From: Burkholderiales bacterium
GTDB lineage: Bacteria > Pseudomonadota > Gammaproteobacteria > Burkholderiales > JBEEJL01
Assembly (NCBI GenBank): GCA_049698095.1
Contig: JBAVXA010000037.1
Location: 1 to 59,521, forward strand
DNA length: 59,521 nt
Direction of reading: 5' to 3'
Made by a program: the position numbers and the translations under genes. Positions 24,193 to 50,771 of the stretch are shown in pieces. Position 1 is the stretch's first letter; each line of letters begins with the position of its first letter. The notes below the pieces were generated by a model that did no database searches, had not been told where the DNA came from, and saw only the letters and a program-made list of their open reading frames with translations.

Positions 24193-24206
24193 TTGATACA
24201 TGTCAA
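24193..24206 (-). promoter_or_regulatory. FNR/ANR-type box upstream of usp
   Basis: TTGATacatGTCAA (9/10 to TTGAT-N4-ATCAA). On the minus strand a TTATGT hexamer begins 20 nt past the box, which is class II geometry. The box is 96 nt from the usp ATG. Confidence 0.55.
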
Positions 24207-24324
24207 AATCATCTAACATTAGCCGCTACAGGTACCTGTTTTCTATTTCCGAAGAATTTCGGTTGTCGGCCGATTTCCGGATGTTATGTATAACATATTG
24301 ATTTTATTGAATTAATTAAAGACA

Positions 24325-25410
24325 ATGCAAGATCCTATGATTGAAGACCCGTCGAAACTGGCGACCTATGTCGGAATTATCCATGCTTCAATGGAAGCGA
24401 TTATCAGTGTGGATGAACGGCAGCAGATCGTGATGTTCAATCCGGCGGCGGAACAGATGTTTCGATGCAAAATTGAAAATGCCATCGGCTCGCCGCTATC
24501 GCGTTTTATTCCCGAGCGCTTTCGCGCGGTGCATGACCAGCACATGCAGCGTTTCGGGAAAACCGGTACCAGCGAACGCCGTATGGGCAAGCAGCTCGCG
24601 CTGTTCGGCCTGCGCGCCGACGGAGAAGAATTCCCGATTGAAGCGTCCATTTCGCAAATCGAGCAGAATGAAAAAAAGCTGTTTACCGTTATGCTGCGCG
24701 ACATCACGCAACGTAAACGCTATGAGCACGAACTCGAAGCCTCGCGCCACCAATTACGCGAATTGGCCGCCAGCGTTCAAGCCGCGCGCGAGGAGGAAAA
24801 AGCGCGCATCGCGCGCGAGTTGCACGACGACCTCGGGCAACAGCTCACCGCATTGAAAATGGATTTGAGTTGGTTGGCTCACAGACTGCCGCAGGACAGC
24901 CCGGATTTGGCGGAAAAAATCAGGGCCATGCAGGCGTTGACTGACACCAGTGTCGCGTCCCTCAGACGCATTGCTTCAGATTTGCGACCGACCATGCTTG
25001 ACGATCTCGGATTGGCGCCCGCCATTGAGTGGCTGGCACAGGATTTTTCCCGGCGTACCGATATCAACGTTCACTTGAACATGGTGCAGCGCGCGCAACG
25101 GTTGACCAAGAATGCAGAAACCGCCATTTACCGCATCGTCCAGGAGTCGCTCACCAACGTGATGCGTCATGCCCGCGCGACCAACGTATATATTACGACG
25201 GAGTATACTGCGAATGGCTTCCTGCTCAAGATCCGTGACGACGGGGTCGGCATCAGTCCGGCGTCGCGCCGCAAGGCAAATTCTTTTGGCCTGCTGGGCA
25301 TGAAAGAGCGGGTGCACGGGTTTGGCGGTGCCATCAGTTTTTCCGCAGTGCCCGATCGCGGCACGACGATCGAAGTCGAATTGCCGCGCAACATAATTCA
25401 AGAGGAATAG
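24325..25410 (+). CDS. Cytoplasmic PAS-domain sensor histidine kinase (HisKA_3 / NarX-DegS class)
   Basis: No TM segments. PAS domain (EAIISVDERQQIVMFNPAAEQMF...FTVMLRDITQRK). H-box ARELHDDLGQQLT. HATPase_c N and G boxes (QESLTNVMRHA, DDGVGI, GLLGMKERV). Confidence 0.9.
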   Translation: MQDPMIEDPSKLATYVGIIHASMEAIISVDERQQIVMFNPAAEQMFRCKIENAIGSPLSRFIPERFRAVHDQHMQRFGKTGTSERRMGKQLALFGLRADGEEFPIEASISQIEQNEKKLFTVMLRDITQRKRYEHELEASRHQLRELAASVQAAREEEKARIARELHDDLGQQLTALKMDLSWLAHRLPQDSPDLAEKIRAMQALTDTSVASLRRIASDLRPTMLDDLGLAPAIEWLAQDFSRRTDINVHLNMVQRAQRLTKNAETAIYRIVQESLTNVMRHARATNVYITTEYTANGFLLKIRDDGVGISPASRRKANSFGLLGMKERVHGFGGAISFSAVPDRGTTIEVELPRNIIQEE

Positions 25411-25417
25411 ACGCAGC

Positions 25418-26071
25418 ATGATAAAGGTTCTGATAGCCGACGACCACGCCATTGTGCGGCAAGGGCTGAAACAGGTGCTCGCCGAGGCCGACGACATGCA
25501 GGTTGGCGGCGAGGCCACCAATGGCCTCGAAACGCTGGAGCAAATCCGCAATCACGATTGGAGTGTCGTGGTCATGGATATGTCCATGCCTGGTCGCAGC
25601 GGTATCGAACTCATCAAACTGGCAAAGGCCGAACGACCCAAACTGCCGATATTGATTCTCACCATGCATAGCGAAGACCAGTACGCCATGCGGGCGCTGC
25701 AGGCCGGCGCATCAGGATATATGACCAAAGAAAGCGCGCCGGAACAACTGGTCAACGCGATCCGCAAGGTGGCGGCCGGTGGCGTTTATGTCAGTGCTGC
25801 CACGGCAGAAAAACTGGCACAGAATATCAGGCCGGGCAATGAGGCATTGCCGCACACGCGCTTATCCAACCGCGAGTTCGAGGTTTTTCAGATGCTCACT
25901 ACAGGAATCAGTTTGTCTGAGGCGGCGCAAAAACTGTCGCTGAGCGTGAAAACCATCAGCACTCACAAGACCCATATTCTGGCAAAACTCAATCTTGCCA
26001 ACCAGACCGAACTCGTTCGCTATGCGATCAAACATGGGTTGGCCGACGAAGCGGGCTCCCAGACACACTGA
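25418..26071 (+). CDS. NarL/FixJ-family response regulator (REC + LuxR-type HTH)
   Basis: Receiver (VLIADDH, VVVMDMSMPG, K in YMTKE) and C-terminal LSNREFEVFQMLTTGISLSEAAQKLSLSVKTISTHK. Lies 7 nt after the kinase gene. Confidence 0.95.
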   Translation: MIKVLIADDHAIVRQGLKQVLAEADDMQVGGEATNGLETLEQIRNHDWSVVVMDMSMPGRSGIELIKLAKAERPKLPILILTMHSEDQYAMRALQAGASGYMTKESAPEQLVNAIRKVAAGGVYVSAATAEKLAQNIRPGNEALPHTRLSNREFEVFQMLTTGISLSEAAQKLSLSVKTISTHKTHILAKLNLANQTELVRYAIKHGLADEAGSQTH

Positions 26072-26074
26072 TCT

Positions 26075-26533
26075 CTACTGCGTTTTCCAGCCGCCGTCGG
26101 CCTGCCGGCAAGCCGTTCCGGTAACTTTTTCTTTATTGCCGCCAATCGTCGCATCGACCGTGTATTCGCGGCACGCACCGCTGGCATTTTCGATGGTTCT
26201 GGTCGGAACCACAGTATAGCGGTTACCCGAATCCGGATTGCGCCAGCTGGATGCCACACCGGTTCGCACATTCTCCAGTGCATGCGCCGTTTTCAGACGA
26301 TCGGTATCGTCCATCGATCTGCCTACCGATCCACCAATAGAGCTACCGATCAGCGTACCGAGAATGGTGGCGGTCGTGCGGCCGGTGCCCTGCCCTATCT
26401 CTGACCCGACAACGCCGCCCAATACGCCGCCGATTACCATGCCCGTTTGCTCACGCGGCGGCGGCGACGTACATGCCGTTGGTAGCGACGCACAGAATGC
26501 GATTACTAAAGCCAATGGTGATAATTTCATCAT
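26075..26533 (-). CDS. Outer-membrane lipoprotein, glycine-zipper / 17-kDa surface-antigen-like
   Basis: Lipobox LPTAC after the signal peptide. Gly-zipper GGVLGGVVGSEIGQGTGRTTATILGTLIGSSIGGSVG. C-terminal CREY...ACRQADGGW module typical of this family. Confidence 0.8.
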   Translation of the reverse strand: MMKLSPLALVIAFCASLPTACTSPPPREQTGMVIGGVLGGVVGSEIGQGTGRTTATILGTLIGSSIGGSVGRSMDDTDRLKTAHALENVRTGVASSWRNPDSGNRYTVVPTRTIENASGACREYTVDATIGGNKEKVTGTACRQADGGWKTQ

Positions 26534-26541
26534 GCGCCTTA

Positions 26542-26549
26542 TTAATTAA
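26542..26549. repeat. Target-site duplication (left) of the IS1595-family element
   Basis: TTAATTAA immediately outside the left IR. An identical octamer lies at 27400-27407. 8-bp duplications are the norm for IS1595-family elements. Confidence 0.65.
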
Positions 26550-27399
26550 GGTAATTAGGGCGACACGTAACCAAAATAGAGTTTCAGGAACTGCTTAAAC
26601 AGGTTCTCGCCACGATGATTATAACGATACTCAATTTCCTTCAGACACATCGGGAAATAATACTTTGACACACAGCGGTAGTTATACCAAATATGTTTGG
26701 CATAGCTCCAGAAACCTTCGATGCCGTTAATGTGATTCTTGGTGCGCTTATACTCAAACGATTTACTGTGACTCACCACATGATGCTTGCCATAACGCTG
26801 CAACGATTGGTACCCGCGAAAGGCATCGGTGTAAAATACCGAGCCCTTGCGCGTGCGTTGCTCGATGTGGCGCATCAAGGTCGCGGCGCTGACATTCTCC
26901 ACCACCTTGGTATAGACCCGACCGTCCCGCTTCAAGAGGCCAAACACGATACTTTTACCCGCCGCACCACGTCCGCGCATCCCTTTGCGATGGCCACCAA
27001 AGTACGATTCATCCAATTCAATCTCAACGGCCAGCTTGCTGCCTTTGAGTTCTGCCATGTGATACAGCGCTTCGCGCAAGCGCTGGTAAATACGCGTCAC
27101 CACCTTGACGTCCACCGCCAAGTCGTTGGCCAGGCGATACGCCGGTTGTTGCTTGTAGAACCCCATCAGGATGGCGATCTCTCGGCGCAACCGCGACAGA
27201 CTCTTTTGCTTGGCGCACAATCGGCACTTGACGTACCCACGGGCGGTCTTGTTCACCTTGAACGAGCCGCAATAAAGGCACTTGCGCACCCGCAAATAGT
27301 TGGCCGCACAATTAAACACGCTCCATTTACCGGTCGTTTTGCCTATGGTAACCATACCTATCTCCTAGGATACTCTGGTTACGAAACGCCCTAATTACC
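26550..27399 (-). mobile_element. IS1595-family insertion sequence (850 bp), apparently intact
   Basis: Terminal inverted repeats GGTAATTAGGGCGACACGTAACC (26550-26572) and GGTTACGAAACGCCCTAATTACC (27377-27399) match at 20/23. There is a single transposase ORF. The element is flanked by 8-bp direct repeats TTAATTAA. Confidence 0.85.
26555..27355 (-). CDS. IS1595-family (ISXO2-like) DDE transposase
   Basis: N-terminal zinc ribbon (CLYCGS...CRLC). DDE_Tnp_IS1595-type core (IELDESYFGG..., VFYTDAFRGYQSL, INGIEGFWSYAKH). Confidence 0.9.
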   Translation of the reverse strand: MVTIGKTTGKWSVFNCAANYLRVRKCLYCGSFKVNKTARGYVKCRLCAKQKSLSRLRREIAILMGFYKQQPAYRLANDLAVDVKVVTRIYQRLREALYHMAELKGSKLAVEIELDESYFGGHRKGMRGRGAAGKSIVFGLLKRDGRVYTKVVENVSAATLMRHIEQRTRKGSVFYTDAFRGYQSLQRYGKHHVVSHSKSFEYKRTKNHINGIEGFWSYAKHIWYNYRCVSKYYFPMCLKEIEYRYNHRGENLFKQFLKLYFGYVSP

Positions 27400-27407
27400 T
27401 TAATTAA
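27400..27407. repeat. Target-site duplication (right) of the IS1595-family element
   Basis: TTAATTAA immediately outside the right IR. Confidence 0.65.
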
Positions 27408-27457
27408 TCGCAGGAAAATTCCTATGAATAAGATAATTAAGTTGAACATCGGCCCGT

Positions 27458-27471
27458 TTGATATAGATCAG
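27458..27471 (-). promoter_or_regulatory. FNR-type box (9/10), likely the former promoter element of the lipoprotein gene
   Basis: TTGATatagATCAg. On the minus strand a TATCTT hexamer begins 22 nt past the box. The IS now lies between this site and the lipoprotein gene. Confidence 0.4.
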
Positions 27472-27569
27472 ACTTCGTGCATAGAGGTTTGTCGGTTGTC
27501 TATGATCCAAGGTCAAAATAAAGGGCGGCGCAATTGAGATGACCGCCGCGCCTTGTATTTTCAATTTCC

Positions 27570-27583
27570 TTGATCCAAGTCAA
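27570..27583 (+). promoter_or_regulatory. FNR-type box upstream of the cytochrome c gene
   Basis: TTGATccaaGTCAA. A GATATT hexamer begins 21 nt downstream. The box centre is about 156 nt upstream of the ATG at 27733. Confidence 0.45.
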
Positions 27584-27732
27584 TATTTATTGGGTTCTTA
27601 GGAGGATATTTCCTTTTAATACGACGCGACCCGCAGAACGGGGGTTTTACTTGGGAATGTGGCAACGCGGCGTAGAAGAAGACATTGTTTTCAACTGATC
27701 TTTTATTACAAGCAAATGAAAAGGATTCCAAC

Positions 27733-28158
27733 ATGAAAATTTCAAAAATTGGAGCAGCTCTGATTGGCGTCGTGCTGGCTGCGATGTCTGCAATGGTTTT
27801 AGCGGCGGATAAGGTTGACCTGGGCAAGAAGGAGTTTGAAGCCAATTGCGCGGGTTGCCACGGCGTCAAAGCGAAAGGCGATGGGCCATTTAAGCCGTAC
27901 CTGAACAAGATCGCCCCGGACTTGACAGTGCTCACAAAAAACAACGGAGGAGCATTTCCGTTCGCCCGCGTCTATGAAACGATAGATGGCACGAGCGAAG
28001 CATCGGTCCATGGCACGCGCGACATGCCTATTTGGGGGACGGTGTATAAGATCAAGGCGGGCGAGTATTATGGAGATGTGGACTACGTGCCGGATTACTT
28101 TGTGCGCAGCCGGGTTCTGGCGCTGATCGATTATATAAACCGGCTGCAGGTGAAGTAA
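27733..28158 (+). CDS. Class I c-type cytochrome (monoheme), exported
   Basis: Start at ATG 27733 behind AAAGGA. Signal peptide MKISKIGAALIGVVLAAMSAMVLAA. Single heme motif CAGCHG, and a distal Met (RDMPIWG) as the likely sixth ligand. Confidence 0.85.
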   Translation: MKISKIGAALIGVVLAAMSAMVLAADKVDLGKKEFEANCAGCHGVKAKGDGPFKPYLNKIAPDLTVLTKNNGGAFPFARVYETIDGTSEASVHGTRDMPIWGTVYKIKAGEYYGDVDYVPDYFVRSRVLALIDYINRLQVK

Positions 28159-28210
28159 CACACGCCTGCGATCGCAAAAGTTTCTGAAAAGCCCGGTATT
28201 TGGGTTAATC

Positions 28211-28228
28211 GGCGCTGTGTGCAGCGCC
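28211..28228 (+). terminator. Possible terminator after the cytochrome c gene
   Basis: GGCGCTG-TGTG-CAGCGCC (7-bp stem, 4-nt loop) followed by a T-containing tract (GTTATCGGGCGTTGTTT). Confidence 0.4.
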
Positions 28229-28402
28229 GTTATCGGGCGTTGTTTCGGACGTACGCCGACCATTTTCTTTTTACATAGATCATTTCATCAGGCCGAACCG
28301 GCGTGACAGGGAATAGCGTTTGCCAGGCGCTGGTTCGATGGCCGGGTGATTTAATAAAAACTTTACTTTGATTTATAAGCTTGTTGCGCATAGGGCGACA
28401 AA

Positions 28403-28864
28403 ATGAAAAAAGAAATTCGCCGCTTCATCAATGAAATTATGGATCATCAGCCTGATCTGACGCTCGCGACATTGCGCGCGGACGGCTGGCCGCAGGCAAA
28501 TACCGTGAGCTATGCACACGACGGTCTGGTGATTTATTTTGGCACCGCGAAAGACAGCCAGAAAGTCAAGAATATCAAACATTGCGACAAGGTTTCGTTA
28601 ACGATCAATGAAGAATACGGTGGAGACTGGAACAAAATCAAAGGAATTTCGATGGCGGCCACGGCCACTATCCTGCGAGATAAGAAAAGCGTGCAATATG
28701 CCATCGATTGCATTATCAAACGTTTTCCTGTTGCCGCCGATTGGGCAAGCGTGGATGACTTGGCCAATATGGTTTATTTGAAAGTGACGCCGAGCGTGAT
28801 TTCCGTGCTGGATTATGCCCAGGGATTTGGCCACACGGAATATATAACCGTGCGAAAAGGGTAA
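28403..28864 (+). CDS. Pyridoxamine 5'-phosphate oxidase family (FMN-binding split-barrel) protein
   Basis: 153-aa ORF with LTLATLRADGWPQANTVSY...VIYFGTAKDSQKVKNI, the typical PNPOx-like split-barrel N-terminal pattern. Confidence 0.8.
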   Translation: MKKEIRRFINEIMDHQPDLTLATLRADGWPQANTVSYAHDGLVIYFGTAKDSQKVKNIKHCDKVSLTINEEYGGDWNKIKGISMAATATILRDKKSVQYAIDCIIKRFPVAADWASVDDLANMVYLKVTPSVISVLDYAQGFGHTEYITVRKG

Positions 28865-28988
28865 TCGTACTTTTTGGAATTTCCTAGCCCTAACGACCTC
28901 ACATTCCCTGTTTTCAACTGCAAACTCGATTTACGCTGGCAAACGGCAAATGTCATTACCCGCAAGCCCAACAATTGGGGCGATTAGT

Positions 28989-29002
28989 TTGATGCAGATC
29001 AA
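28989..29002 (+). promoter_or_regulatory. Perfect FNR/ANR box
   Basis: TTGATgcagATCAA (10/10). A TAcgtT hexamer lies at 29025-29030. The box centre is about 141 nt upstream of the ATG at 29137. Confidence 0.55.
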
Positions 29003-29136
29003 CGCCGGTCGGGATTCATGATGGTACGTTTTAAGCTGGCCAGAATGGATTTATTCAATGCTATCAACGAATCATCTCTCGCAAGTGTGAAGGCACCATC
29101 TGCCGGATTCCGTACTTCGAAAATCAGGAGTTCAAC

Positions 29137-29640
29137 ATGAATAAGCAGGCAAACCCGATCGGAAAATTTCGCCCAATTCAGCGCGAGCAACTGTTTCCGG
29201 AGAAAATTCATGATCCCTACATGCACCGCCTCAAACCGTCCGAGCCGACTGTATGCCCGGATTGCAGGGCGAATTTCAGCAAAGGCCGATGGCAATGGGG
29301 ACACTTCCAAGGGGATGCTCAGGAAGAATTATGCCCAGCTTGCCATCGTATTCGCGACAATTTCCCCGCAGGTTACGTCGCGCTTGAGGGCACGTTTTTT
29401 GCTGAGAACCGCGACGAAATTCTACATCTGGCGCGAAATGTGGAGGCACGCGAAAAAGCGGAACATCCGCTTGAGCGTATTATGGCCGTAGCGAACGCCG
29501 CTTCGGGTGTGTTGATCACTACCACAGGCATTCACCTTGCCCGCGATATTGGCGACGCGGCGAAGCATGCCTATCAGGGAAGCCTGGAGTTTCACTACAA
29601 CGACGACGAAAACCTGTTGCGGGTGCGTTGGTCGCGTTAG
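29137..29640 (+). CDS. Conserved hypothetical protein with two CxxC pairs (zinc-ribbon-like; resembles the 'BCAM0308 family')
   Basis: AGGAG RBS. CPDC...CPAC pairs in the N-terminal third. Conserved-looking C-terminal half (LITTTGIHLARDIGDAAKHAYQG). The family name is from memory only. Confidence 0.65.
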   Translation: MNKQANPIGKFRPIQREQLFPEKIHDPYMHRLKPSEPTVCPDCRANFSKGRWQWGHFQGDAQEELCPACHRIRDNFPAGYVALEGTFFAENRDEILHLARNVEAREKAEHPLERIMAVANAASGVLITTTGIHLARDIGDAAKHAYQGSLEFHYNDDENLLRVRWSR

Positions 29641-29765
29641 GTAAAACGTCAATTCGCAACGTTCGATGTGTCTTATGTGCCGCGACTTTATGAGAAGGCT
29701 GGTATATTGCGCAAAGCGGTAAGCGCCAAACCAATAGCAAGACTGTCATTACAGAAAGAAAAATC

Positions 29766-29939
29766 ATGATTAAAAATCGCCGCCGACGCCGCATATTATC
29801 GTTTGGCATGGTACTGCTTGGCGGCCTGCTGATATTTCTGGCGCCGGATGATGTTTGGATCGGTATCGTGCTTGCTCTTCTCGGCGTCGGCATCGAAGTC
29901 GCTGGTATTTTATTGGCTCACGATAATACGGGGAAATAA
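29766..29939 (+). CDS. Small (57 aa) two-helix membrane protein, not in the ORF track
   Basis: MIKNRRRRRILSFGMVLLGGLLIFLAPDDVWIGIVLALLGVGIEVAGILLAHDNTGK. Positive-inside N-terminus and two hydrophobic helices. Its TAA stop directly abuts the trxC ATG at 29940. Confidence 0.5.
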   Translation: MIKNRRRRRILSFGMVLLGGLLIFLAPDDVWIGIVLALLGVGIEVAGILLAHDNTGK

Positions 29940-30362
29940 ATGAACCTGGTTTGTCCGACTTGCGGGTCGCTAAATCGGGTTCTGGACGAGCGGCTGCAAG
30001 ACGAGCCGATCTGTGGCAGATGCAAGACCAGGCTATTGCCCGAGAGCCCGATCGCATTAGATGATATCAGCTTTGAACGATACGCCAACAGAAGCGAATT
30101 AATCCTCGTTGTCGATTTTTGGGCCGAATGGTGCGGTCCGTGCAAGTCCATGGCGCCCGAGTTTGCAAACGCGGCGAGCCAAATGCGCGGTCGAGCGTTG
30201 TTTGCAAAAGTTGATACCGAAGCTGCAGCGAAAACTTCTGTGCGCTTTAGAGTGCGCAGCATTCCCACCATGGTTTTAATGCGCGGCGGGAAGGAAATTG
30301 ACCGGGCCGTTGGCGCACGTTCCGCGCGCGAGATTACTGCCTGGGTGGAGCAACTGCGCTAG
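29940..30362 (+). CDS. trxC: Thioredoxin 2 (zinc-finger thioredoxin)
   Basis: N-terminal CPTC-x15-CGRC zinc finger followed by a thioredoxin fold with the WCGPC active site. Confidence 0.9.
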   Translation: MNLVCPTCGSLNRVLDERLQDEPICGRCKTRLLPESPIALDDISFERYANRSELILVVDFWAEWCGPCKSMAPEFANAASQMRGRALFAKVDTEAAAKTSVRFRVRSIPTMVLMRGGKEIDRAVGARSAREITAWVEQLR

Positions 30363-30408
30363 GTCTGCGGCACTATTTGTATTTACAGAATAATAAAGGA
30401 TATTACTC

Positions 30409-30852
30409 ATGGCAGGAATCGAAAACTTACATCTACGGCAAATTGAGAACTATCGGTTTGAAGTCATATTCAACACCAGCCAGGCTCCGTTTATAGTCGA
30501 TGAAGCGCCGCCTTTAGGCGATGGAGTGGGCCCTACTCCGGTTCAGTTGCTCACCGCAGCGATTGCCAACTGTTTATCGGCATCAATACTTTTTGCGCTG
30601 CGCAAGTTCAAGCTTGATCCAGGCACTGTTAGCGCAGATGCTTTTGCTAGCGTCGGACGTAATGCGGAAAACTTATTACGTGTGCAAAAAATTACCGTGA
30701 ATCTTAAGTTGGGCAAGTCTGCCGCATCATTTGACTACCTTGACCGGGTGCTGACGCAGTTTGAAAAATATTGCACGGTAACGCAAAGCATCAATCAGTC
30801 GATTGCTGTAGAGGTTTCCGTTTTCGACGTTAACGGAAAAAAGCTGAAATAA
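30409..30852 (+). CDS. OsmC/Ohr-family peroxiredoxin-like protein
   Basis: Two conserved Cys contexts (AAIANCLSASI and FEKYCTVTQS) at OsmC-like spacing. Confidence 0.8.
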   Translation: MAGIENLHLRQIENYRFEVIFNTSQAPFIVDEAPPLGDGVGPTPVQLLTAAIANCLSASILFALRKFKLDPGTVSADAFASVGRNAENLLRVQKITVNLKLGKSAASFDYLDRVLTQFEKYCTVTQSINQSIAVEVSVFDVNGKKLK

Positions 30853-30962
30853 TTCCCATGCCGTCCATTTGTTTGAATTGCCGAAACGTGTAAACGAACT
30901 ATCGGCTATGCCAGCGCAACACCGTGAACGACATAAGCCGCCTGCGCCGCGCCTGCAGCTTG

Positions 30963-31535
30963 TCAGGTCTGGTTTTCGCGCTTTCGCCACTCACGAATAA
31001 TATATACAAGCCAAACCATAATCCCGCCAATCGACAGCGTCAGAAAAGCCCGGCCTTCGTATTGTCGCAGTTCGCCCAGAAGCAGCGTCATGGCATTTCC
31101 AAAAACATAGCCAAGACCCGCGATCAGAATAGCCCAAACCACCGCGCCAAGCAGGTTCAGGATCAAATAGCGGAGCCACGACACGTCGGTCATTCCCAGC
31201 GCGATCGGGCCGGCAATCCGCAGGCCATACAGAAATCGTAAGGAAAGAATGACAGGCACATGATATAGGTCCAGCAATTTCCGAAAGCGCTCGACCCGCT
31301 TATTCAGGCCTGGAAACCGGCCGGTCAGACGATTCCCATAGCGCCGGCCAAGAAAAAAATATAATTGATCGCCCATGAAGCTGGCCAGACACGCGATTGC
31401 CATGACGCCGGGCAGAGACAAATAACCGCGGTGCGCGGCGAAGCCGGCAAGCAGCAGAATCGTCTCTCCTTCAAGAAAGGTTCCGACAAAAACGGCTATA
31501 TAGCCGTAGGATTGAATCAGTTCAGTTAAATTCAC
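30963..31535 (-). CDS. DedA-family membrane protein
   Basis: IAVFVGTFLEGETILLLAG and FLGRRYG motifs. GTG 31535 (VNLTELIQSYGY...) gives a family-typical N-terminus. The ORF stays open up to 31682, so the start is uncertain. Confidence 0.8.
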   Translation of the reverse strand: MNLTELIQSYGYIAVFVGTFLEGETILLLAGFAAHRGYLSLPGVMAIACLASFMGDQLYFFLGRRYGNRLTGRFPGLNKRVERFRKLLDLYHVPVILSLRFLYGLRIAGPIALGMTDVSWLRYLILNLLGAVVWAILIAGLGYVFGNAMTLLLGELRQYEGRAFLTLSIGGIMVWLVYIIREWRKRENQT

Positions 31536-31710
31536 GAATTGTATTTCGGCCTCGGGATGACTTTTTTCGGTGAATAAGCAGAATTGCCGATCTTTTACAG
31601 AATACCAATGAAACGACAGTTGAAGTTCACAGTAAAATCTTTTTTTCATGCTGAGCAGGTCTTCCCCCATGCCCGAAAGCATGGTTAATCCGGGTCACTC
31701 ATAGTAGTAT

Positions 31711-40770: not shown

Positions 40771-40914
40771 GCCCTGACCGCATCAAAATTGATCCAAATC
40801 ATTTGCCAGTCGATCCCTTACATTATTATCCAATCTGGCGCTGCGGCATTTACGCTGCCTGCTCCCAACCGCCATTCTTGCGCAGCAATAAGTACTTCAT
40901 GCAGGACGCTGAAC

Positions 40915-44010: not shown

Positions 44011-44289
44011 TCATGGCTTCTTCATTATTTCATCAATCTTCTTTTTCTCCCATTCAGATCCAAACCTGCCGCCAAAACCGAACGTACCAACCGCCTGGGC
44101 GACAATCGCTATTCCCCAGCCAAATACGACCCACAGAAACCACCAAGGCCCGCCGCTTGAAAGATTGATCAGAAAAAGCATGGAGATCACCAGCAGGTAA
44201 ATCGTCAGGTGAATATAAAAGTCCTTGATTTTTGCCACTTGCCGTTTCGCGGCCAGATATTTCTCTTCCTGTTCCATGTTTCTCTCCAT
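44011..44289 (-). CDS. 2TM-domain small membrane protein
   Basis: An amphipathic N-terminus (AKRQVAKIKDFYIHL) followed by two TM helices matches the '2TM domain' family pattern. Confidence 0.7.
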   Translation of the reverse strand: MERNMEQEEKYLAAKRQVAKIKDFYIHLTIYLLVISMLFLINLSSGGPWWFLWVVFGWGIAIVAQAVGTFGFGGRFGSEWEKKKIDEIMKKP

Positions 44290-44346: not shown

Positions 44347-45159
44347 TTACGCATGACGCCGGTAAATCAGGTAATACACCAATGCCACCATGACACTGCC
44401 ACCGACAATATTGCCTAAGGTGACGGGCAACAGATTTTGCGCGAAGCCGAGCCAGCTCAGTTCCGCGCCGGATGCTCCGTATCCCGCACCCTGAAGCAAA
44501 ATACCGAGGGGAACAAAGAACATATTGGCGACGCTATGTTCGAAGCCGGCGGCGACAAAGGCAGAGATCGGAAATATCACCGCAAGGATTTTGTCGGTGA
44601 CAGTATGGCCGGCAAGGCTCAACCACACGGCCATACATACAAGCGCGTTGCATAGGACGCCTTTGAAAAACGCCTCCGCAAACGGCATAGCGGTTTTGGT
44701 AGCTGCAATTTTTACGTATTGCCCGCCGACTCCTCCGCCAGCCATATCGGCATGGTGAGACCAGTAGACCAGCAGTGCAAGACCGATTGCCCCGGCCGCG
44801 TTGGAAATATAAACCAGCCCCCAATTGCGCAGGACTTCTACAGTGGAAATTTTTCCGTCGGCCCATGCCATCACCAACATGTTATTGCCGGTGAATAATT
44901 CCGCGCCGGCCACGACAACCAGCACCAGACCGAGTGAAAATGTCAGCCCCATCAACAATCGCTGTAGGGCAAACCCAAGCGAGGCATCGCTGGAAACCAG
45001 AGTCGAAAATATTGCGCCGAAACCGATAAATGCACCCGCCAGGATGCCGAGAAGGATCAACGGAACCAGCGGCAAGTGCGCCTTGGCTACGCCTACAGTT
45101 TCGACCCGCTCGGCAATTTGCGCTGGAGAGTAAGCATCGAATCCAAATAATTCGGGCAT
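44347..45159 (-). CDS. Formate/nitrite transporter (FNT) family channel
   Basis: 270 aa, six TMs. FNT hallmarks (AGAELFTGNN, GFEHSVANMF, LGNIVGG). Confidence 0.9.
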   Translation of the reverse strand: MPELFGFDAYSPAQIAERVETVGVAKAHLPLVPLILLGILAGAFIGFGAIFSTLVSSDASLGFALQRLLMGLTFSLGLVLVVVAGAELFTGNNMLVMAWADGKISTVEVLRNWGLVYISNAAGAIGLALLVYWSHHADMAGGGVGGQYVKIAATKTAMPFAEAFFKGVLCNALVCMAVWLSLAGHTVTDKILAVIFPISAFVAAGFEHSVANMFFVPLGILLQGAGYGASGAELSWLGFAQNLLPVTLGNIVGGSVMVALVYYLIYRRHA

Positions 45160-45165
45160 ATGGAG

Positions 45166-45615
45166 CTATCTGCGCGATTGCATTTCACGGCGCTGCTCTT
45201 TCAGCGTGAGTTTCGATATTTCGGTGAGTTCCAGCGCCAGCTCTCCTATCAGGTCGTCCACGGTCACAATCCCGACAAGGCTGCCGGCGACATTGACAAC
45301 CGGCATCCGGCGGATTCCTTTCAGGCACATCAGGCGTAGCGTATCATCGCGTTCGTCCAATTCGTCCGCCGTCAACAGGTTGCCAACCAGAATATCACCA
45401 AGGGTGATGACCTTTGGATCAAGGCCCATCGCCACGACTTCAACCACGATGTCGCGGTCGGTCACAATGCCGACGGGAAGACGCTCCCCGTCAACAGTGT
45501 CGATGACAACCAAGTCACCCACATGCTGGTGACGCATGAGGTCGGAGGCTTCGGCAATCGTGGTGTCGCGCGTAGCGAACACCACATTGCGGTTGCACAG
45601 ACTGCCTATCGGCAT
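45166..45615 (-). CDS. CBS-pair domain protein
   Basis: Two CBS repeats (VGDLVVID...GIVTDRDIV and IRRMPVVN...GIVTVDDLI). No other domain. Lies 6 nt upstream of the FNT gene. Confidence 0.9.
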   Translation of the reverse strand: MPIGSLCNRNVVFATRDTTIAEASDLMRHQHVGDLVVIDTVDGERLPVGIVTDRDIVVEVVAMGLDPKVITLGDILVGNLLTADELDERDDTLRLMCLKGIRRMPVVNVAGSLVGIVTVDDLIGELALELTEISKLTLKEQRREMQSRR

Positions 45616-45669: not shown

Positions 45670-46008
45670 TCAAATATCGGATTCGGCGACATCATCTCCA
45701 CCTTCATTCAGCAAATTATCCAGATCCTCGCTCCCATCAGCAACACCGCCGTCTTCCTCTGCAGCTTGCAAATTTTGCCGCTTCGCGTCGGAGAGTGCCG
45801 TCAGGGGCGTGTGGCGTTCCGCAGGATCAAACGGCGCGGTGAACTTGTCCTCGTCGGCACCTTGCGGATCAACCGCATTCCTCGCTCTGGCGCGCTGGCG
45901 GACTGACGGCTTACGCGCCGCATTCGCATCGGAAGGTTTCGATGTTTTTGCCCCCCGGGCGAGTCTTGTTCCCGAGTGTGCAATGTGCTTGTCAATGGTT
46001 CCTGGCAT
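45670..46008 (-). CDS. Hypothetical low-complexity protein (basic N-half, acidic C-half)
   Basis: AGGAG RBS 8 nt before ATG 46008. 112 aa, predicted disordered. First gene after a perfect FNR box with a TATAAT -10. Confidence 0.6.
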   Translation of the reverse strand: MPGTIDKHIAHSGTRLARGAKTSKPSDANAARKPSVRQRARARNAVDPQGADEDKFTAPFDPAERHTPLTALSDAKRQNLQAAEEDGGVADGSEDLDNLLNEGGDDVAESDI

Positions 46009-46179: not shown

Positions 46180-47988
46180 TTATTGTATCGAAGAGGGACA
46201 GCAGGCGGATTCAGCGTCCGTGTTTGCTGGCCGCAACACCGCCCCGCGCACTGAATTCGGTCGATAGGCGGTACAGCCCTTGAGGCCGAGCGTATACGCA
46301 AGGTCGAATACGGTATGAAAATCCGCAAACTCCGTCGCCGGCGGGATATAGACGGTTTTTGAAATGGCATTGTCGACAAAACGCTGCAATGCCGCCTGCA
46401 TGGAAAGCTGCGCCGCCGGGCTGATATGGTCAGCAGTCATAAATGCTGACGGCAATGGTGCGGCTGAGCCGTGCATCCGGCTGTATAAGTCGCTGGCATA
46501 ATCAGTCATCCTTGCGCTTCTGGCGCTGCCATCCGATTGAACGATATCGCGCCGGTAGTCAAAGGCGAATACCGGCTCCAGGCCGCTGGAAACGTTATTG
46601 GCCAACAGGCTTATCGTACCGGTGGGCGCGATGGCGATGAGATGGCTGTTGCGAATTCCCTGAGCAGCTATGCCGTCGGAAATATCCTGCGGCAGTGCGC
46701 GGATGAATTCACCCTGCAGATATTTTGCCGTGTCGAAACACCCGAATGCCCCCTTCTCTTTTGCCAACGCAATCGACGCGCGGTAGGCGCTATGGCAAAT
46801 CGTTTGCATGACCGCCTCCGCCTGAATTATCGACTCGGCGGAGCCGTAAATCTGTCCGAGCATAATCAGTGCATCGGCGAGGCCGGTGATGCCGAGGCCG
46901 ATGCGCCGCGAAGCGATCGCGGTTTCCGCCTGCTGCGGCAGCGGAAACTTAGACAGATCGTAAACGTTATCGAGCATGCGCACGGCGATGGCGGCGGTAT
47001 CGGCAATGGCGCCAAGATCCATTCGTGCAGTCGGGGTAAACGGCTCCTGCACAAACTGCGTCAGGTTGATCGAGCCGAGGTCGCATGCGCCGTAAGGCGG
47101 CAGGGGAATCTCGCCACAAGGGTTGGTCGCGCTGATTTGCTCGCAATAACGCAGATTATTTGCACGTTGCACGCGGTCGATGAAGAGGACGCCCGGCTCA
47201 GAAAAATTGTAGTTGGCACGTAGCAGTTTCTGCCATAGCGCGCGTGCACCGACGTGGTGAAACACTTTGCACTGGACCGGCGCGGCGTATCCCGGCCATT
47301 CGCGCATGACAGTTTCGCCGCTGCCGACGTCCGGCTTACCCGCCAGCGGAAATATCAGCGGCCAGTTTTCGTCACGTTGTACCGCCTGCATGAATGCATC
47401 GCTTACCAGTACTGACAGATTGAAGTTTCGAAGCGCGCCGGTTTCGTGTTTTGCGTCAATGAACAGGCCAATATCCGGATGGTCGCAGCGGAGGGTCGCC
47501 ATCATGGCGCCGCGGCGCGCGCCGGTGGAAAGAATGGTCCCGCACATGCTGTCCCAGATATGCATGAAAGATACCGGCCCTGAAGCGACAGAACCCACGC
47601 TCGCCGCAAGCGTGCCGGCCGGACGCAGAGTGGAAAAATCATAGCCGACTCCGCCGCCCTGCTGCATGGTGATGGCGCCCTGCTTGAGTGCGTCAAAAAT
47701 GCCGTCCATTGAATCGTCGATAGTGCCCATGACAAAACAATTGAACAGCGTGACACGGCGCCCGGTACCGGCGCCGGCCTGGATGCGTCCGCCAGGCAGG
47801 AAGCAAAAGTTTTCCAGCGCGCCGTAGAAACGCGCCTCCCATTCCGCCGAATGCATGGGCTCAACCGATGCCAGCGCGTGCGCTACTCTGCGCCAGGTAT
47901 CGGCAATCGTGTTATCGGTCTCACGCCAGCGGTACTTGCTGTCCCATATCTGTTCGGAAACCTCGGAGGAAAAATGACGTGCGCGCAT
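46180..47988 (-). CDS. nrdJ: Class II (adenosylcobalamin-dependent) ribonucleotide reductase
   Basis: 602 aa. Segments LPGGRIQAGAGT, LFNCFV, QGGGVGYDFSTLRP, GARRGAMMATL and NPCGEIPLPPYGACDLGSINL, with the catalytic Cys/Asn/Glu context. No class I R2-interaction tail. Confidence 0.9.
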   Translation of the reverse strand: MRARHFSSEVSEQIWDSKYRWRETDNTIADTWRRVAHALASVEPMHSAEWEARFYGALENFCFLPGGRIQAGAGTGRRVTLFNCFVMGTIDDSMDGIFDALKQGAITMQQGGGVGYDFSTLRPAGTLAASVGSVASGPVSFMHIWDSMCGTILSTGARRGAMMATLRCDHPDIGLFIDAKHETGALRNFNLSVLVSDAFMQAVQRDENWPLIFPLAGKPDVGSGETVMREWPGYAAPVQCKVFHHVGARALWQKLLRANYNFSEPGVLFIDRVQRANNLRYCEQISATNPCGEIPLPPYGACDLGSINLTQFVQEPFTPTARMDLGAIADTAAIAVRMLDNVYDLSKFPLPQQAETAIASRRIGLGITGLADALIMLGQIYGSAESIIQAEAVMQTICHSAYRASIALAKEKGAFGCFDTAKYLQGEFIRALPQDISDGIAAQGIRNSHLIAIAPTGTISLLANNVSSGLEPVFAFDYRRDIVQSDGSARSARMTDYASDLYSRMHGSAAPLPSAFMTADHISPAAQLSMQAALQRFVDNAISKTVYIPPATEFADFHTVFDLAYTLGLKGCTAYRPNSVRGAVLRPANTDAESACCPSSIQ

Positions 47989-48051: not shown

Positions 48052-48065
48052 TTGATATGCATCAA
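48052..48065. promoter_or_regulatory. Perfect FNR/ANR box between divergent nrdJ and the PRTase gene
   Basis: TTGATatgcATCAA (10/10). The box centre is 70 nt from the nrdJ ATG (47988). GATACT begins 21 nt past the box toward nrdJ, and cAGAAT begins 21 nt past it toward 48170. Confidence 0.7.
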
Positions 48066-48150
48066 CTCATGCATGCCTACTCGGCTCAGAATGAAAAAAT
48101 GAATCTCCTCTGTAGACGAGCGTCGCTCGTTCGTAAGTTTACTTATATTC

Positions 48151-48169: not shown

Positions 48170-48814
48170 ATGATTTTTTCGAACAGGAATCAAGCCGCCG
48201 CGCTGCTCGCACAACGTTTGCAGGAATATGGCGGCGGCCCGCTGGTTCTAGCCATCCCGCGCGGGGCAGTGCCGATGGGCAAAATCATTGCCGATGCATT
48301 GGGCGGCGAGCTTGATGTCGTGCTCACGCGCAAACTGCGCGCACCGGGAAATCCGGAATATGCAATCGGCGCAATCGATGAGACTGGCTGGGCGTACATC
48401 TCGGAATTCGCGTCATCCGCAGGTGCCACGCCCGAATATATTGAGGAAGAAAAAAAGACTCAACTCGATACCATTCGCCGTCGCCGCAAACAATATACGC
48501 CAATACATAAAGCCGCCGATCCTGAAGGCCGCACGGTAATAGTGGTCGACGATGGGCTGGCCACAGGCGCTACCATGATCGCGGCCCTGCATGCATTGCG
48601 TGCGCGCGCTCCAAAAATACTGATTTGTGCCGTGCCCGTGGCGCATCCGGAAACCTTGAAGAAAGTGGCGCTCTATGCGGATAAAGTCATTTGTCTGCAT
48701 AGCCCTCCGGATTTTTATGCCGTCGGCCAGTTTTACCGCGATTTTCCCCAGGTTGAGGACGATGAAGTGATCGGAATCTTAGCCAGTACAGGCAGCGACA
48801 AATCCAGCCCCTGA
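48170..48814 (+). CDS. Phosphoribosyltransferase-family protein
   Basis: N-terminus FSNRNQAAALLAQRL...VLAIPRGAVPMG and PRPP loop VIVVDDGLATGATM. This is the same architecture as the PRTase half of PRTase/hydrolase pairs. Confidence 0.85.
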   Translation: MIFSNRNQAAALLAQRLQEYGGGPLVLAIPRGAVPMGKIIADALGGELDVVLTRKLRAPGNPEYAIGAIDETGWAYISEFASSAGATPEYIEEEKKTQLDTIRRRRKQYTPIHKAADPEGRTVIVVDDGLATGATMIAALHALRARAPKILICAVPVAHPETLKKVALYADKVICLHSPPDFYAVGQFYRDFPQVEDDEVIGILASTGSDKSSP

Positions 48815-48883: not shown

Positions 48884-48946
48884 ATATCGATAAAAGCCTT
48901 GCGATAATCTGAAAACGTCGTAATTCATTCACTAAAGGAGATAAAA

Positions 48947-49384
48947 ATGTTTAAGACAATCCTGATTCCGACTGACGGCTCGGCGCTTTCAGAAAATGCC
49001 GCAAAAAAATCACTGCAATTGGCCAAATCGCTGAACGCAAAAGCGGTGGGATTCTATTCTATTGAGCCGTTTCACATCCTGGCCGCCAATACGGAAATGA
49101 TGAGTGATACGCGCGAAGTTTATGAACGGGATTCGAAATTGCGCGCAAGCTCCTCGTTAGCAAAAATTGAAGATTTCGCGCGTTCAGCGGGTGTTGCCTG
49201 TGAATGCGTCAGCGGGCAGGACGATAGCCCCTGGCAAGGCATCATCAAGGCCGCGCAATCCAAAGGTTGTGACCTTATAGCCATGGCTTCGCACGGTCGC
49301 ACCGGAATGCAGGGCATTTTGATCGGCAGTCAGGCCAACCACGTCTTGACGCATTCGAAAATCCCGGTTCTGATTTTTAGATAA
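48947..49384 (+). CDS. Universal stress protein (UspA family)
   Basis: MFKTILIPTDGS N-terminus and C-terminal SHGRTGMQGILIGSQANHVLTHSKIPVLIFR. GGAG RBS. Confidence 0.9.
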   Translation: MFKTILIPTDGSALSENAAKKSLQLAKSLNAKAVGFYSIEPFHILAANTEMMSDTREVYERDSKLRASSSLAKIEDFARSAGVACECVSGQDDSPWQGIIKAAQSKGCDLIAMASHGRTGMQGILIGSQANHVLTHSKIPVLIFR

Positions 49385-49497
49385 CCCGCCTATCGACACA
49401 CGGCCGGTCACCAGCTGGCGCGATTCGGGTGAATTCAGGCGCAGTTGCCTGCTTGATAAACGGCATGAGCGCACCCTTTTTTCTCGCCTCAATAAAT

Positions 49498-49528
49498 AAA
49501 AAGATCCCGAAACGATTGGGATCTTTTT
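49498..49528. terminator. Bidirectional rho-independent terminator
   Basis: AAAAAGATCCC-gaaacgatt-GGGATCTTTTT. The stem is flanked by an A-run and a T-run, between convergent usp (+) and the hydrolase gene (-). Confidence 0.8.
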
Positions 49529-49529
49529 A

Positions 49530-50192
49530 TTACAACCTGCCTTTAAACCATTCCGCTGCCAACCGCGCCGCCTCTTCCAATGTTCCCGGCTCCTCGAACA
49601 GGTGAGTTGCTCCCGGGATAATCTGCATTTGTTTTTCGCAGCTTAGATATTCATAGGCGATCTGGTTAAGCTGAATGACCTCGGCGTCATCGCCGCCTAC
49701 AATCAGCATCGTAGGCGCGAGCACTTTGCGTAACGAATCCTCGCCGGCTAGATCAGGGCGACCGCCGCGCGATACGACGGCACCGATTTCTCCACCGAAC
49801 TGCGCCGCGGCGCGCAATGCCGCCGCCGCACCGGTACTGGCGCCGAAATAACCGATTCGCATCCCGGCGGTCCGACTGGCGGTAGCCAGCCAGTAAGTGG
49901 CGCCGATGAGCCTTGACGTTAACAATGCGATATCGAAGCGCGTCGCGTAGTTTGCGTCTTCCGCGGGCGTCAGCAAATCGATCAACAGGCTGCCGATACG
50001 AGCCGCGTGCAGCACATCGGCGACAAAGATATTGCGCGGGCTGAAGCGGGAACTGCCGCTGCCGTGGGCAAACAGAACGACTGCCTTTGCGCCAACCGGC
50101 AGTGTCAGCGTGCCCTTCAATTGGACGTTCCCAGTCGAAATGACGACTGTGGAAGCGTGCGAAAAATCCTGAACGTCGCCCGGCGGGTTCAT
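49530..50192 (-). CDS. Dienelactone-hydrolase-type alpha/beta hydrolase
   Basis: VVLFAHGSGSSRFSPRN, nucleophile elbow GASTGAAAAL, and C-terminal GATHLFEEPG (His). Confidence 0.85.
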   Translation of the reverse strand: MNPPGDVQDFSHASTVVISTGNVQLKGTLTLPVGAKAVVLFAHGSGSSRFSPRNIFVADVLHAARIGSLLIDLLTPAEDANYATRFDIALLTSRLIGATYWLATASRTAGMRIGYFGASTGAAAALRAAAQFGGEIGAVVSRGGRPDLAGEDSLRKVLAPTMLIVGGDDAEVIQLNQIAYEYLSCEKQMQIIPGATHLFEEPGTLEEAARLAAEWFKGRL

Positions 50193-50211
50193 CGCGTTTT
50201 GCAGCTGTCGC

Positions 50212-50700
50212 TTATTTTCGCGGGCTCTCGCCTGCGCTTTTCTGTTCCTGCATTTCGCGTTCGATCATTTGCTGCATCATCGATTGCATCATGTCCATGC
50301 GTTTTTCCATCATCTCATGGTGTTTCATCATGCCGCCCTGCATCATACCGCCTGGCTTCATCGCGCCTTCTTTCATTCCGCCGCCCATCATTCCTCCGCC
50401 CATGCAACCGCCGCCGCCGCTCATGCCGCACATCATGCCCATGCCATCGCGCATGGCCTGCATGTGTTCCTGCATGAGTTTCTGCTTCTCGGCCGGGTCG
50501 GACGTGGCGCGAATTTTTTCCATCTGCATTTGCATTTTTTTCATGTGGTCCTGCATGGCAGATTGCGCCGCGTCCGCGCTGCCAGGCGCAGTTGCTGCTG
50601 CGGCGCCGTGTCCGGCATGGCTTCCGGCGGATGGCGGGGCGGCACAGCCAAATTGTAGAAGTGCAACGGCCAGACCAGACAATTTCAGTAGATTTTTCAT
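50212..50700 (-). CDS. Methionine/glycine-rich lipoprotein
   Basis: Signal peptide with lipobox LLQFGC. The mature part is dominated by M-x-M / MM motifs plus His and two Cys (GMGMMCGMSGGGGCMGGGMMGGGM). By my count there are 31 Met in 162 residues. GAGGA RBS. Confidence 0.7.
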   Translation of the reverse strand: MKNLLKLSGLAVALLQFGCAAPPSAGSHAGHGAAAATAPGSADAAQSAMQDHMKKMQMQMEKIRATSDPAEKQKLMQEHMQAMRDGMGMMCGMSGGGGCMGGGMMGGGMKEGAMKPGGMMQGGMMKHHEMMEKRMDMMQSMMQQMIEREMQEQKSAGESPRK

Positions 50701-50757
50701 CTCATATCCTCAGCAAAACTCGTTCGGACAATTTACTTCCTGAGGTGGATTTGTTTG

Positions 50758-50771
50758 TTGATACAGATCAA
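50758..50771 (-). promoter_or_regulatory. Perfect FNR/ANR box upstream of the Met-rich lipoprotein gene
   Basis: TTGATacagATCAA (10/10). The box centre is 64.5 nt from the ATG at 50700. A TAAATT hexamer begins 22 nt past the box on the minus strand. Confidence 0.7.

Follow-up and report, generated by a model that had tools for sequence, protein, structure and literature searches.

Nine FNR-type boxes at predicted class II promoters in an lxa-like gene cluster of an uncultured Burkholderiales bacterium

The stretch of DNA analyzed here (hereafter, the window) is an entire 59,521-bp contig (JBAVXA010000037.1) of a metagenome-assembled genome (MAG) labelled 'Burkholderiales bacterium', which represents an uncultured lineage with a GC content of 55%. 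The left 21 kb of the window is occupied by housekeeping genes, and from 23.6 kb onward lies a gene cluster resembling lxa, a locus of Burkholderia cenocepacia that is induced at low oxygen. This cluster encodes a regulator of the FNR/Anr family, and its intergenic regions contain nine 14-bp inverted repeats of the FNR box type, TTGAT-N4-ATCAA. The analysis concerns these boxes, the promoters that they are predicted to form and the regulator that might bind them.

Read from left to right, the cluster begins with genes for a universal stress protein (USP), a PAS/HisKA_3 kinase, a NarL-type regulator, a glycine-zipper lipoprotein and the transposase of an IS1595-family insertion sequence (IS), followed by cytochrome c, a PPOX-class protein, a BCAM0308-family protein, thioredoxin 2 (Trx2), OsmC, DedA and a SulP transporter. 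Next come a pair of genes for a receiver and FNR, a MacB-type ABC exporter with its HlyD partner, a phosphoribosyltransferase (PRTase), two small proteins and an alpha/beta hydrolase, and then a K+ channel, a protein with two transmembrane segments (2TM), a FocA/NirC channel, a CBS-pair protein and the class II ribonucleotide reductase (RNR) NrdJ. A second PRTase, a second USP, two proteins without an assigned family (one of them a Met/Gly-rich lipoprotein), two P-type ATPases and a second HlyD-ABC-MacB set complete the cluster (Table 1). Its right edge is undefined because the contig ends there.

Table 1 Features of the window; boxes are named by their first position, and the gap is the number of nucleotides between box and −10-like hexamer.
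Feature	Position	Strand	−10-like hexamer	Gap	Context or predicted target
Housekeeping genes uvrB, rne, rluC, sppA, plsX, fabH, fabD, fabG, fabF, mltG, tmk, holB, tatD	left 21 kb
lxa-like cluster	23660–59221				right edge open
Box 24193, TTGATACATGTCAA	24193–24206		TATGTT 24171–24166	21	region between divergent USP (−) and PAS kinase (+) genes; predicted target, USP gene 23660–24103 (−)
PAS sensor histidine kinase (HisKA_3) and NarL/LuxR-type response regulator	24325–26071	+
Glycine-zipper lipoprotein gene	26075–26533
IS1595-family element	26541–27408				transposase 26555–27355; 38-nt inverted repeats 26541–26578 and 27371–27408
Box 27458 (FNR-like), TTGATATAGATCAG	27458–27471		TATCTT 27435–27430	22	orphan
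Box 27570, TTGATCCAAGTCAA	27570–27583	+	GATATT 27605–27610	21	upstream of cytochrome c gene 27733–28158
Box 28989 (perfect), TTGATGCAGATCAA	28989–29002	+	TACGTT 29025–29030	22	upstream of BCAM0308-family gene 29137–29640
Single-domain receiver gene	33644–34060				29 nt upstream of fnr
fnr	34089–34892	+			267 aa; by family, O2-sensing [4Fe-4S]-type FNR/Anr regulator
Box 40789, TTGATCCAAATCAT	40789–40802	+	TATTAT 40824–40829	21	predicted targets, membrane-anchored 196-aa protein 40915–41505 and alpha/beta hydrolase 41512–42492
Box 46147 (perfect), TTGATCTATATCAA	46147–46160	−	TATAAT (consensus) 46125–46120	21	predicted targets (all −), 112-aa protein 45670–46008, CBS-pair protein 45166–45615, FocA/NirC-type channel 44347–45159, 2TM protein 44011–44289
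Box 48052 (perfect), TTGATATGCATCAA, toward nrdJ	48052–48065	−	GATACT 48030–48025	21	predicted target, nrdJ 46180–47988 (−)
Box 48052, toward PRTase	48052–48065	+	CAGAAT 48087–48092	21	predicted target, PRTase gene 48170–48814 (+)
Box 48870, TTGATCTAGGTCAA	48870–48883	+	GATAAT 48903–48908 (extended, TGcGATAAT)	19	upstream of USP gene 48947–49384
Box 50758 (perfect), TTGATACAGATCAA	50758–50771	−	TAAATT 50735–50730	22	predicted targets (both −), Met/Gly-rich lipoprotein gene 50212–50700 and 220-aa gene 49530–50192
Two P-type ATPase genes	50810–55991
Second HlyD-ABC-MacB set	56119–59221	−

When the whole window was searched with the pattern TTGATNNNNATCAA, allowing at most one mismatch, 12 sites were found, compared to a mean of 2.1 in dinucleotide-preserving shuffles, none of which (0 of 100) reached 12. 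Three of these sites are intragenic (628 in uvrB, 15516 in a FabG-type reductase gene and 30573 in an OsmC-family gene) and are chance background; the other nine are intergenic, and four of the nine are perfect. Under the curated gene map, intergenic DNA amounts to 6,090 bp (46% GC), and first-order Markov simulation of its segments (n = 2000) gave an expectation of 0.40 intergenic boxes at ≤1 mismatch, with a maximum of 4, and of 0.024 perfect boxes. All nine boxes fall between 23.6 and 51 kb, a span with 3.9 kb of intergenic DNA, and the other 2.2 kb is free of them (P ~ 0.02 under a uniform distribution), the intergenic DNA of the left 21 kb included, at the same threshold. The initial annotation of this DNA, a by-eye scan, had listed eight boxes, four of them perfect, and had seen none in the housekeeping half; the pattern search recovered all eight with the same positions and sequences and likewise found none among the housekeeping genes, but the count was one short, the box at 40789 having been missed.

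The TGA core (half-site positions 2–4) is invariant in all 18 half-sites, and 16 of the 18 have the full TTGAT or TTGAC. Three of the mismatches are the GTCAA variant, which is permitted by the common consensus of Pseudomonas aeruginosa Anr and Dnr, TTGAY-N4-RTCAA (PMC4860495). The 15-nt flanks of the boxes show no similarity from site to site, and the boxes are therefore independent sites and not parts of a longer dispersed repeat. Judged by their form, intergenic location and excess over chance, they qualify as FNR/Anr binding sites.

Four further intergenic sites, each with two mismatches to the FNR box, were noticed at 24298, 29054, 48019 and 59268. Two of them, 29054 and 48019, are found a short way downstream of the perfect boxes 28989 and 48052, respectively; the site at 59268 (TTCAATATAATCAA), at the contig end, precedes the HlyD-ABC-MacB operon by about 50 nt.

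At class II promoters of Escherichia coli FNR, the 14-bp dyad TTGAT-N4-ATCAA is centred near −41.5 and replaces the −35 element. With box-to-hexamer spacing taken as a proxy for the transcription start, the boxes in the window conform to this arrangement. The best −10-like hexamer was scored with a position weight matrix (PWM) at starts 20–24 nt beyond each box on the side of the downstream gene, and such a hexamer was found at a gap of 19–22 nt for each of the nine; the mean score was 5.15 bits, compared to −1.6 bits for all intergenic positions, and none of 20,000 random sets of nine reached that value, although at three boxes, all in divergent regions, the choice of direction was made with the scores already known. 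A gap of 21–22 nt places the centre of the box at about −40.5 to −41.5, that is, at the class II position, and the predicted 5' untranslated regions are 23–115 nt long. The predicted starts lie near 24158 (−), 27618 (+), 29037 (+), 40837 (+), 46112 (−), 48017 (−), 48100 (+), 48918 (+) and 50723 (−). The hexamers, the consensus TATAAT next to box 46147 and the class II geometry had all been proposed from inspection, together with the reservation that the hexamer of box 48870 sits 2–3 nt closer than ideal, and all of this held up. One point needs a small correction, as box 27458 faces the IS1595 copy and not a normal target gene.

A generic scan for sigma-70 −35/−10 promoters over the window paired no −35 element with any box-linked −10, as expected for activator-dependent promoters. 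The generic promoter and terminator scans returned counts near shuffle expectation (promoter-like matches at most ~2 standard deviations above it) and therefore cannot delimit operons. The whole window gave no Rfam match at gathering thresholds, that is, no riboswitch or known small RNA that would explain intergenic conservation.

Two boxes call for comment on their targets. At box 40789, the TTG of the box only resembles the start of an open reading frame; the plausible gene start is the ATG at 40915 (MKTILMAVV… in translation), which is matched by an independent gene call in a sister assembly. Box 48052 is predicted to be common to two divergent promoters, with a −10-like hexamer at the same gap on either side.

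Comparison with relatives was informative at several distances. The contigs L147–L152, which come from the same population and match the window at 99% identity or more, are too similar to be of use for footprinting; in one of them, the population variant L152, box 48870 differs in the spacer only. A more distant contig, L061 (91–94% nucleotide identity), has the same gene order and keeps boxes 24193, 27570 and 28989; these were compared by scanning, as the IS-bearing intergenic region is too diverged for global alignment. Box 24193 is identical in L061. Box 28989 differs only in the spacer there, and the stretch from box through −10 is 100% identical compared to 91% for the whole intergenic region. 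The 14-mer of box 27570 is identical, with diverged flanks and a similar distance to the gene.

The broadest comparison came from the BCAM0308-family gene. A scan of metagenomes with the protein yielded 80 loci (54–63% identity) in many different gene neighbourhoods. Upstream DNA was sufficient in 71 loci, and in 50 of these a TTGAY-N4-RTCAA box (≤1 mismatch) occurs in the 300 upstream nucleotides, where about 0.10 box per upstream region would be expected even at the elevated box density of these loci; the boxes are mostly centred 74–100 nt before the start of the match. In 46 non-identical promoters, TAnnnT (usually TATGTT) follows the box at a gap of 21 (34 promoters) or 22 (4 promoters), i.e. 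in 38 of the 46, with none at any other gap from 8 to 31 and one at gap 32, and the spacer between box and TAnnnT is GC-rich and divergent. The same preference was observed for 257 other box sides in these loci (38 TAnnnT at gap 21 and 13 at gap 22 vs. 0–2 elsewhere). The comparison thus gives strong evidence that the box functions as a class II activator site in this group of organisms. The BCAM0308-family gene itself is a very widely conserved predicted FNR target, its promoter being kept in ~70% of the 71 loci whatever the neighbourhood.

For nrdJ, 60 loci of GTDB genomes (L001–L060) were compared, and only the four Casimicrobiaceae loci among them were informative; the NrdJ homologues in these genomes are at most 64–65% identical. 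Synteny is absent from most of the loci (Sulfuricella, Nitrosomonas and others), where strict boxes occur at the chance level of 0.5 per 10 kb, compared to 3.7 per 10 kb between 24 and 51 kb of the window, and these loci serve as a negative background. Because most nrdJ loci of the nearest cultured relatives have neither synteny nor boxes, FNR control of nrdJ would be specific to a lineage or to the island and not a property of the gene family. In the four Casimicrobiaceae loci (L035, L041, L045 and L059; 72% GC), genes for a PAS kinase, a NarL-type regulator, a receiver and FNR are accompanied by a CBS gene on the opposite strand and by PRTase-NrdJ. The intergenic region between CBS and PRTase contains TTGACnnnnGTCAA in all four, with TAGATT at gap 22 toward PRTase-NrdJ and TAAGGT, TAACGT or CAAGAT at gap 21 toward CBS. 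This layout is the same one-box, two-promoter design that is predicted for box 48052.

The product of the fnr gene in the window belongs to the FNR family by two tests. It scores 246.7 bits with the NCBIfam model NF008365 (Fnr; cut-off 228), the next-best family being FixK at 110 bits (cut-off 300), and it aligns over 243 residues with the crystallized Aliivibrio fischeri FNR (5cvr/5e44; E = 4.6 × 10−58, HMMER). C40-x2-C43-x5-C49 is in register with the C-x2-C-x5-C ligands of the A. fischeri protein, the fourth Cys ligand lies in SEVCVIPF, aligned with SMVCEIPY, and the recognition helix ETVSR, which contains the E--SR motif, is aligned with ETISR. The Cys residues and helix named in the initial annotation are thus confirmed. 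In E. coli FNR, the [4Fe-4S] ligands are C20, C23, C29 and C122. The fnr gene is probably co-transcribed with the receiver gene upstream of it.

The PAS kinase and the NarL-type regulator are a candidate second oxygen or redox input. In the four Casimicrobiaceae loci, the quartet of PAS/HisKA_3 kinase, NarL-type regulator, receiver and FNR is contiguous, at about 4300–7700, with 45–56% identity, and in the window the same quartet is divided into two pairs separated by 8 kb. The arrangement suggests that a two-component system acts either above FNR or alongside it, in the manner of FixLJ-FixK. No second shared motif, such as a site for the NarL-type regulator or a DosR-like box, was found to recur when the intergenic regions of the cluster, with the FNR boxes masked, were searched for exact dyads and 8-mers, a crude search that would miss degenerate sites.

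In B. cenocepacia J2315, the lxa locus (BCAM0275a–BCAM0323) comprises 50 genes induced 2- to 240-fold at 6% O2, among them six USP genes and genes for a class II RNR, a sulphate transporter, ABC transporters, a cation ATPase and two two-component systems; an Anr-like regulator, BCAM0287, adjoins a response regulator, and 17 intergenic copies of a motif share TGA-N6-TCA with Anr/Fnr sites (Sass et al. 2013, PMC3721108). Deletion of lxa lowers anoxic survival, and the locus has been likened to the mycobacterial DosR regulon (PMC3721108). The cluster in the window matches this locus as a multi-gene island with USPs, a class II RNR, a SulP transporter, an ABC exporter with a membrane-fusion protein, a cation P-type ATPase and two-component systems, as well as in its PRTases and PAS kinase/NarL-type regulator, its internal Anr-like CRP/FNR regulator beside a response regulator, its BCAM0308-family gene and its many intergenic Anr/Fnr-like repeats. 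Thus, both the co-located gene set and the multiple Anr-like motifs of an lxa locus are present. The two differ in that the cluster is without the polyhydroxyalkanoate (PHA), acetate kinase/Pta, alcohol dehydrogenase, alpha-crystallin and lysine decarboxylase genes of lxa and adds cytochrome c, Trx2, the FocA/NirC channel, the K+ channel, a second P-type ATPase and the Met-rich lipoprotein; moreover, the boxes fit the strict TTGAT-N4-ATCAA, whereas the published motif is the looser TGA-N6-TCA, and the host is a 55% GC uncultured lineage and not Burkholderia. A tblastn comparison with a 40-kb segment of a replicon of Burkholderia stagnalis, a member of the B. cepacia complex, covering only part of lxa, found homologues of the BCAM0308-family protein (39%), OsmC (44%) and NrdJ (40%) within 8 kb, in a different order; synteny with the window extends no further in this segment. 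With only three homologues at 39–44% identity in a different order, the cluster is best described as lxa-like and not as an orthologous copy of lxa.

Other low-oxygen systems show partial likeness. The nrdJ promoter of P. aeruginosa (PnrdJ) is no longer induced anaerobically once its Anr/Dnr box is mutated (Crespo et al. 2016, PMC4860495), and Anr-dependent USPs are attributed to Trunk et al. 2010 as cited in PMC3721108. The window shares with this regulon the consensus, the USPs and a box upstream of the class II RNR gene, centred at −70.5 relative to the nrdJ start codon compared to −84 in P. aeruginosa; targets in P. aeruginosa are scattered over the chromosome under a global regulator, whereas the predicted targets in the window lie in a single island together with an fnr gene. 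The four-Cys [4Fe-4S] sensor, the E--SR helix and the 14-bp dyad near −41.5 are those of E. coli class II FNR systems, but the E. coli regulator mainly switches respiratory and fermentative pathways, whereas the predicted set here is one of stress and persistence genes, and the local regulator has ~20 extra N-terminal residues. With the DosR regulon of Mycobacterium tuberculosis, the cluster has in common multiple USPs, a class II RNR, phosphoribosyltransferases, a CBS-pair protein, a P-type ATPase, a sulphate transporter and the HisKA_3 kinase and NarL-family regulator encoded in it; it differs in that the recurring motif is the FNR box and not the DosR box, and the sensor domain of the kinase is PAS and not GAF.

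Taken together, these observations make it very probable that the region from 23.6 to 59 kb is an lxa-type low-oxygen survival island in which at least eight, and probably nine, promoters are class II FNR/Anr-dependent. The local low-oxygen regulon proposed in the initial annotation thus has support in each of its computational elements, namely enrichment, spacing, conservation and FNR family membership. Under this interpretation, as oxygen falls, the local FNR would retain a [4Fe-4S] cluster held by C40, C43, C49 and the Cys of SEVCVIPF, dimerize and bind the TTGAT-N4-ATCAA boxes via the ETVSR helix; from a box centred ~41 bp upstream of the start and overlapping the −35 position, it would recruit RNA polymerase directly to promoters that have a −10 and no −35. 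The oxygen response, the cluster chemistry, dimerization and the polymerase contacts are inferred here from knowledge of the family. The predicted targets are the two USPs, the oxygen-independent class II RNR NrdJ and the divergent phosphoribosyltransferase, the BCAM0308-family zinc-ribbon protein, cytochrome c, the CBS/FocA-type channel operon, the membrane protein/hydrolase pair and the Met-rich lipoprotein, so that stress proteins, oxygen-independent synthesis of deoxynucleoside triphosphates, nucleotide salvage, channels and a few functionally uncharacterized proteins would be switched on at low oxygen.

Several observations weigh against this interpretation or narrow it. For this organism, the evidence is the sequence of a single MAG contig, and the background for box density is therefore that of the window rather than of the genome. 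Upstream of the receiver-fnr operon and of the ABC-exporter operon, there is no FNR box at ≤1 mismatch, SulP and Trx2/OsmC are likewise boxless, and much of the cluster is, accordingly, not visibly FNR-dependent. The class II RNR genes of the nearest cultured relatives (Sulfuricella, Nitrosomonas and Sulfuriferula) have neither an FNR box nor lxa-type neighbours. The −10 of box 48870 is too close by 2–3 nt. Box 27458 lacks a normal target gene and is missing from L061; it lies 50 nt outside the right inverted repeat of IS1595 with its −10 side facing the element, and it is the weakest of the nine and doubtful as a functional site. Finally, TTGAY-N4-RTCAA is also recognized by paralogues of the Dnr/FixK type.

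The last point bears on the identity of the binder. The boxes might be genuine CRP/FNR-family sites that are bound by another member of the family, either an NO (nitric oxide)-responsive Dnr/NnrR-type or a FixK-type regulator encoded elsewhere, or one in a FixLJ-FixK-like cascade where fnr is controlled by the PAS kinase and the NarL-type regulator; the local FNR would then be a target or co-regulator and not the master switch. Such arrangements have precedents: in P. aeruginosa, Dnr was judged a likelier direct activator of nrdJ than Anr (PMC4860495), and in B. cenocepacia, several Anr paralogues have overlapping roles, two anr genes of strain H111 being jointly required for anoxic survival, and FixLJ of Burkholderia dolosa induces a FixK/Anr homologue (PMC9104464). 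Within the data presented here, the boxless receiver-fnr operon and the conservation of the regulator quartet in Casimicrobiaceae point the same way, as does the presence of an fnr gene near only 3 of 84 BCAM0308 loci, which implies that box-bearing promoters commonly depend on a distal regulator. Nevertheless, the local protein has, by sequence, every feature needed for box binding and oxygen sensing, boxes and an fnr gene occur together here as well as in Casimicrobiaceae and Burkholderia lxa, and the crude search for a second shared dyad came up empty. On this evidence, we regard a different binder as possible but rather unlikely, and somewhat favor the locally encoded FNR over a paralogue elsewhere as the protein that binds the boxes.

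Explanations that deny the sites any FNR-type function fare much worse. That the 14-mers are chance A/T-rich palindromes or pieces of dispersed repeats, such as repetitive extragenic palindromes (REP), miniature inverted-repeat transposable elements (MITE) or IS-associated sequences, could be suspected from the A/T-richness of intergenic DNA, from the IS1595 copy adjoining two of the boxes and from the near-copy of box 27570 close to it; but nine boxes were observed where composition predicts 0.40, the flanks are dissimilar, the boxes lie outside the inverted repeats of the IS, and the box with its fixed distance to TAnnnT is kept across dozens of unrelated contigs with divergent spacers. This explanation is extremely improbable, and the repeat-element version of it was rejected on the enrichment, the unrelated flanks and the conserved spacing. 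Sites for cAMP (cyclic AMP)-CRP share the TGA-N6-TCA core with FNR sites, and TTGAC/TTGAT resembles the start of a sigma-70 −35 hexamer (TTGACA-like). The half-sites, though, are never GTGA, as in the CRP consensus TGTGA-N6-TCACA; the nearest half-site ends 19–22 nt before the −10, compared to the 16–18 nt expected of a −35 hexamer, in line with the failure of the generic scan to pair these −10s; and the local regulator has the E--SR helix and not the RE--R helix of CRP, each of which is established to read its own half-site sequence. The CRP-site and −35-element readings, which we consider very unlikely, were rejected on half-site sequence, spacing and helix.

The low-oxygen Anr/FNR interpretation as such is not new, having been published for the B. 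cenocepacia lxa locus (PMC3721108). The present analysis extends the lxa-type island, so far studied only in pathogens of the Burkholderia cepacia complex, to an uncultured environmental lineage of Burkholderiales and to Casimicrobiaceae. The regulatory logic predicted for the lxa-type loci here is canonical class II FNR activation, and the understanding of FNR regulons is unchanged by it; what is added is the finding that many relatives from the environment have the same strict class II architecture, the recognition of the BCAM0308-family gene as a very widely conserved predicted FNR target and a clean, testable list of nine promoters with predicted start sites.

The BCAM0308-family product of the window scores 202 bits with the NCBIfam model NF040826 ('lxa_BCAM0308'; cut-off 100), and it was noticed to contain two CxxC pairs (CPDC…CPAC) and to give faint NMD3 Pfam matches. 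In a metagenomic locus, L063, the neighbours of the BCAM0308-family gene are FtsH, two S30AE ribosome-hibernation factors, a release-factor-like gene, a USP and a CRP/FNR regulator. There are hints, then, of a ribosome-related role in hypoxic dormancy, to which the FNR promoter kept in ~70% of the 71 loci and the L063 neighbourhood both point. A more far-reaching proposal, which we offer as speculation and consider unlikely, is that the island is a self-contained, possibly mobile hypoxia-persistence module of obligately respiring Betaproteobacteria with sensors of its own (FNR, the PAS kinase/NarL-type regulator and an orphan receiver), and that its top conserved FNR target, this NMD3-like zinc-ribbon protein, is a ribosome-associated dormancy factor. 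Mobility is hinted at by the IS1595 copy and by a dip in GC content at 26–32 kb.

The IS1595 element is present in the sister MAG contig L147 (>99% identical) and absent from L061. Its insertion point is 8 nt from the start codon of the glycine-zipper lipoprotein gene, on the upstream side, and the gene is probably separated from its promoter as a result. Downstream of box 27458, the near-copy of box 27570 (ATGATCCAAGGTCAA, 27502–27516) has a 5-nt spacer, and at ~27523–27561 a GC-rich hairpin with a T-run looks like a bidirectional terminator; the part of the intergenic region from 27458 to 27561 has no alignment with L061. The GC content falls to 50–51% at 26000–32000, compared to 55–58% elsewhere in the window, and this dip, which coincides with IS1595, is consistent with part of the island being mosaic or acquired by horizontal transfer.

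The Met/Gly-rich lipoprotein encoded downstream of box 50758 matched no Pfam or NCBIfam model, and its exact sequence is absent from a collection of 15 billion proteins. It has a lipoprotein signal (…LLQFGC) followed by long Met/Gly-rich repeats (MGMMCGMSGGGGCMGGGMMGGGM…), which resemble periplasmic Cu(I)/Ag(I)-binding Met-rich proteins, and its gene adjoins those of the two P-type ATPases.

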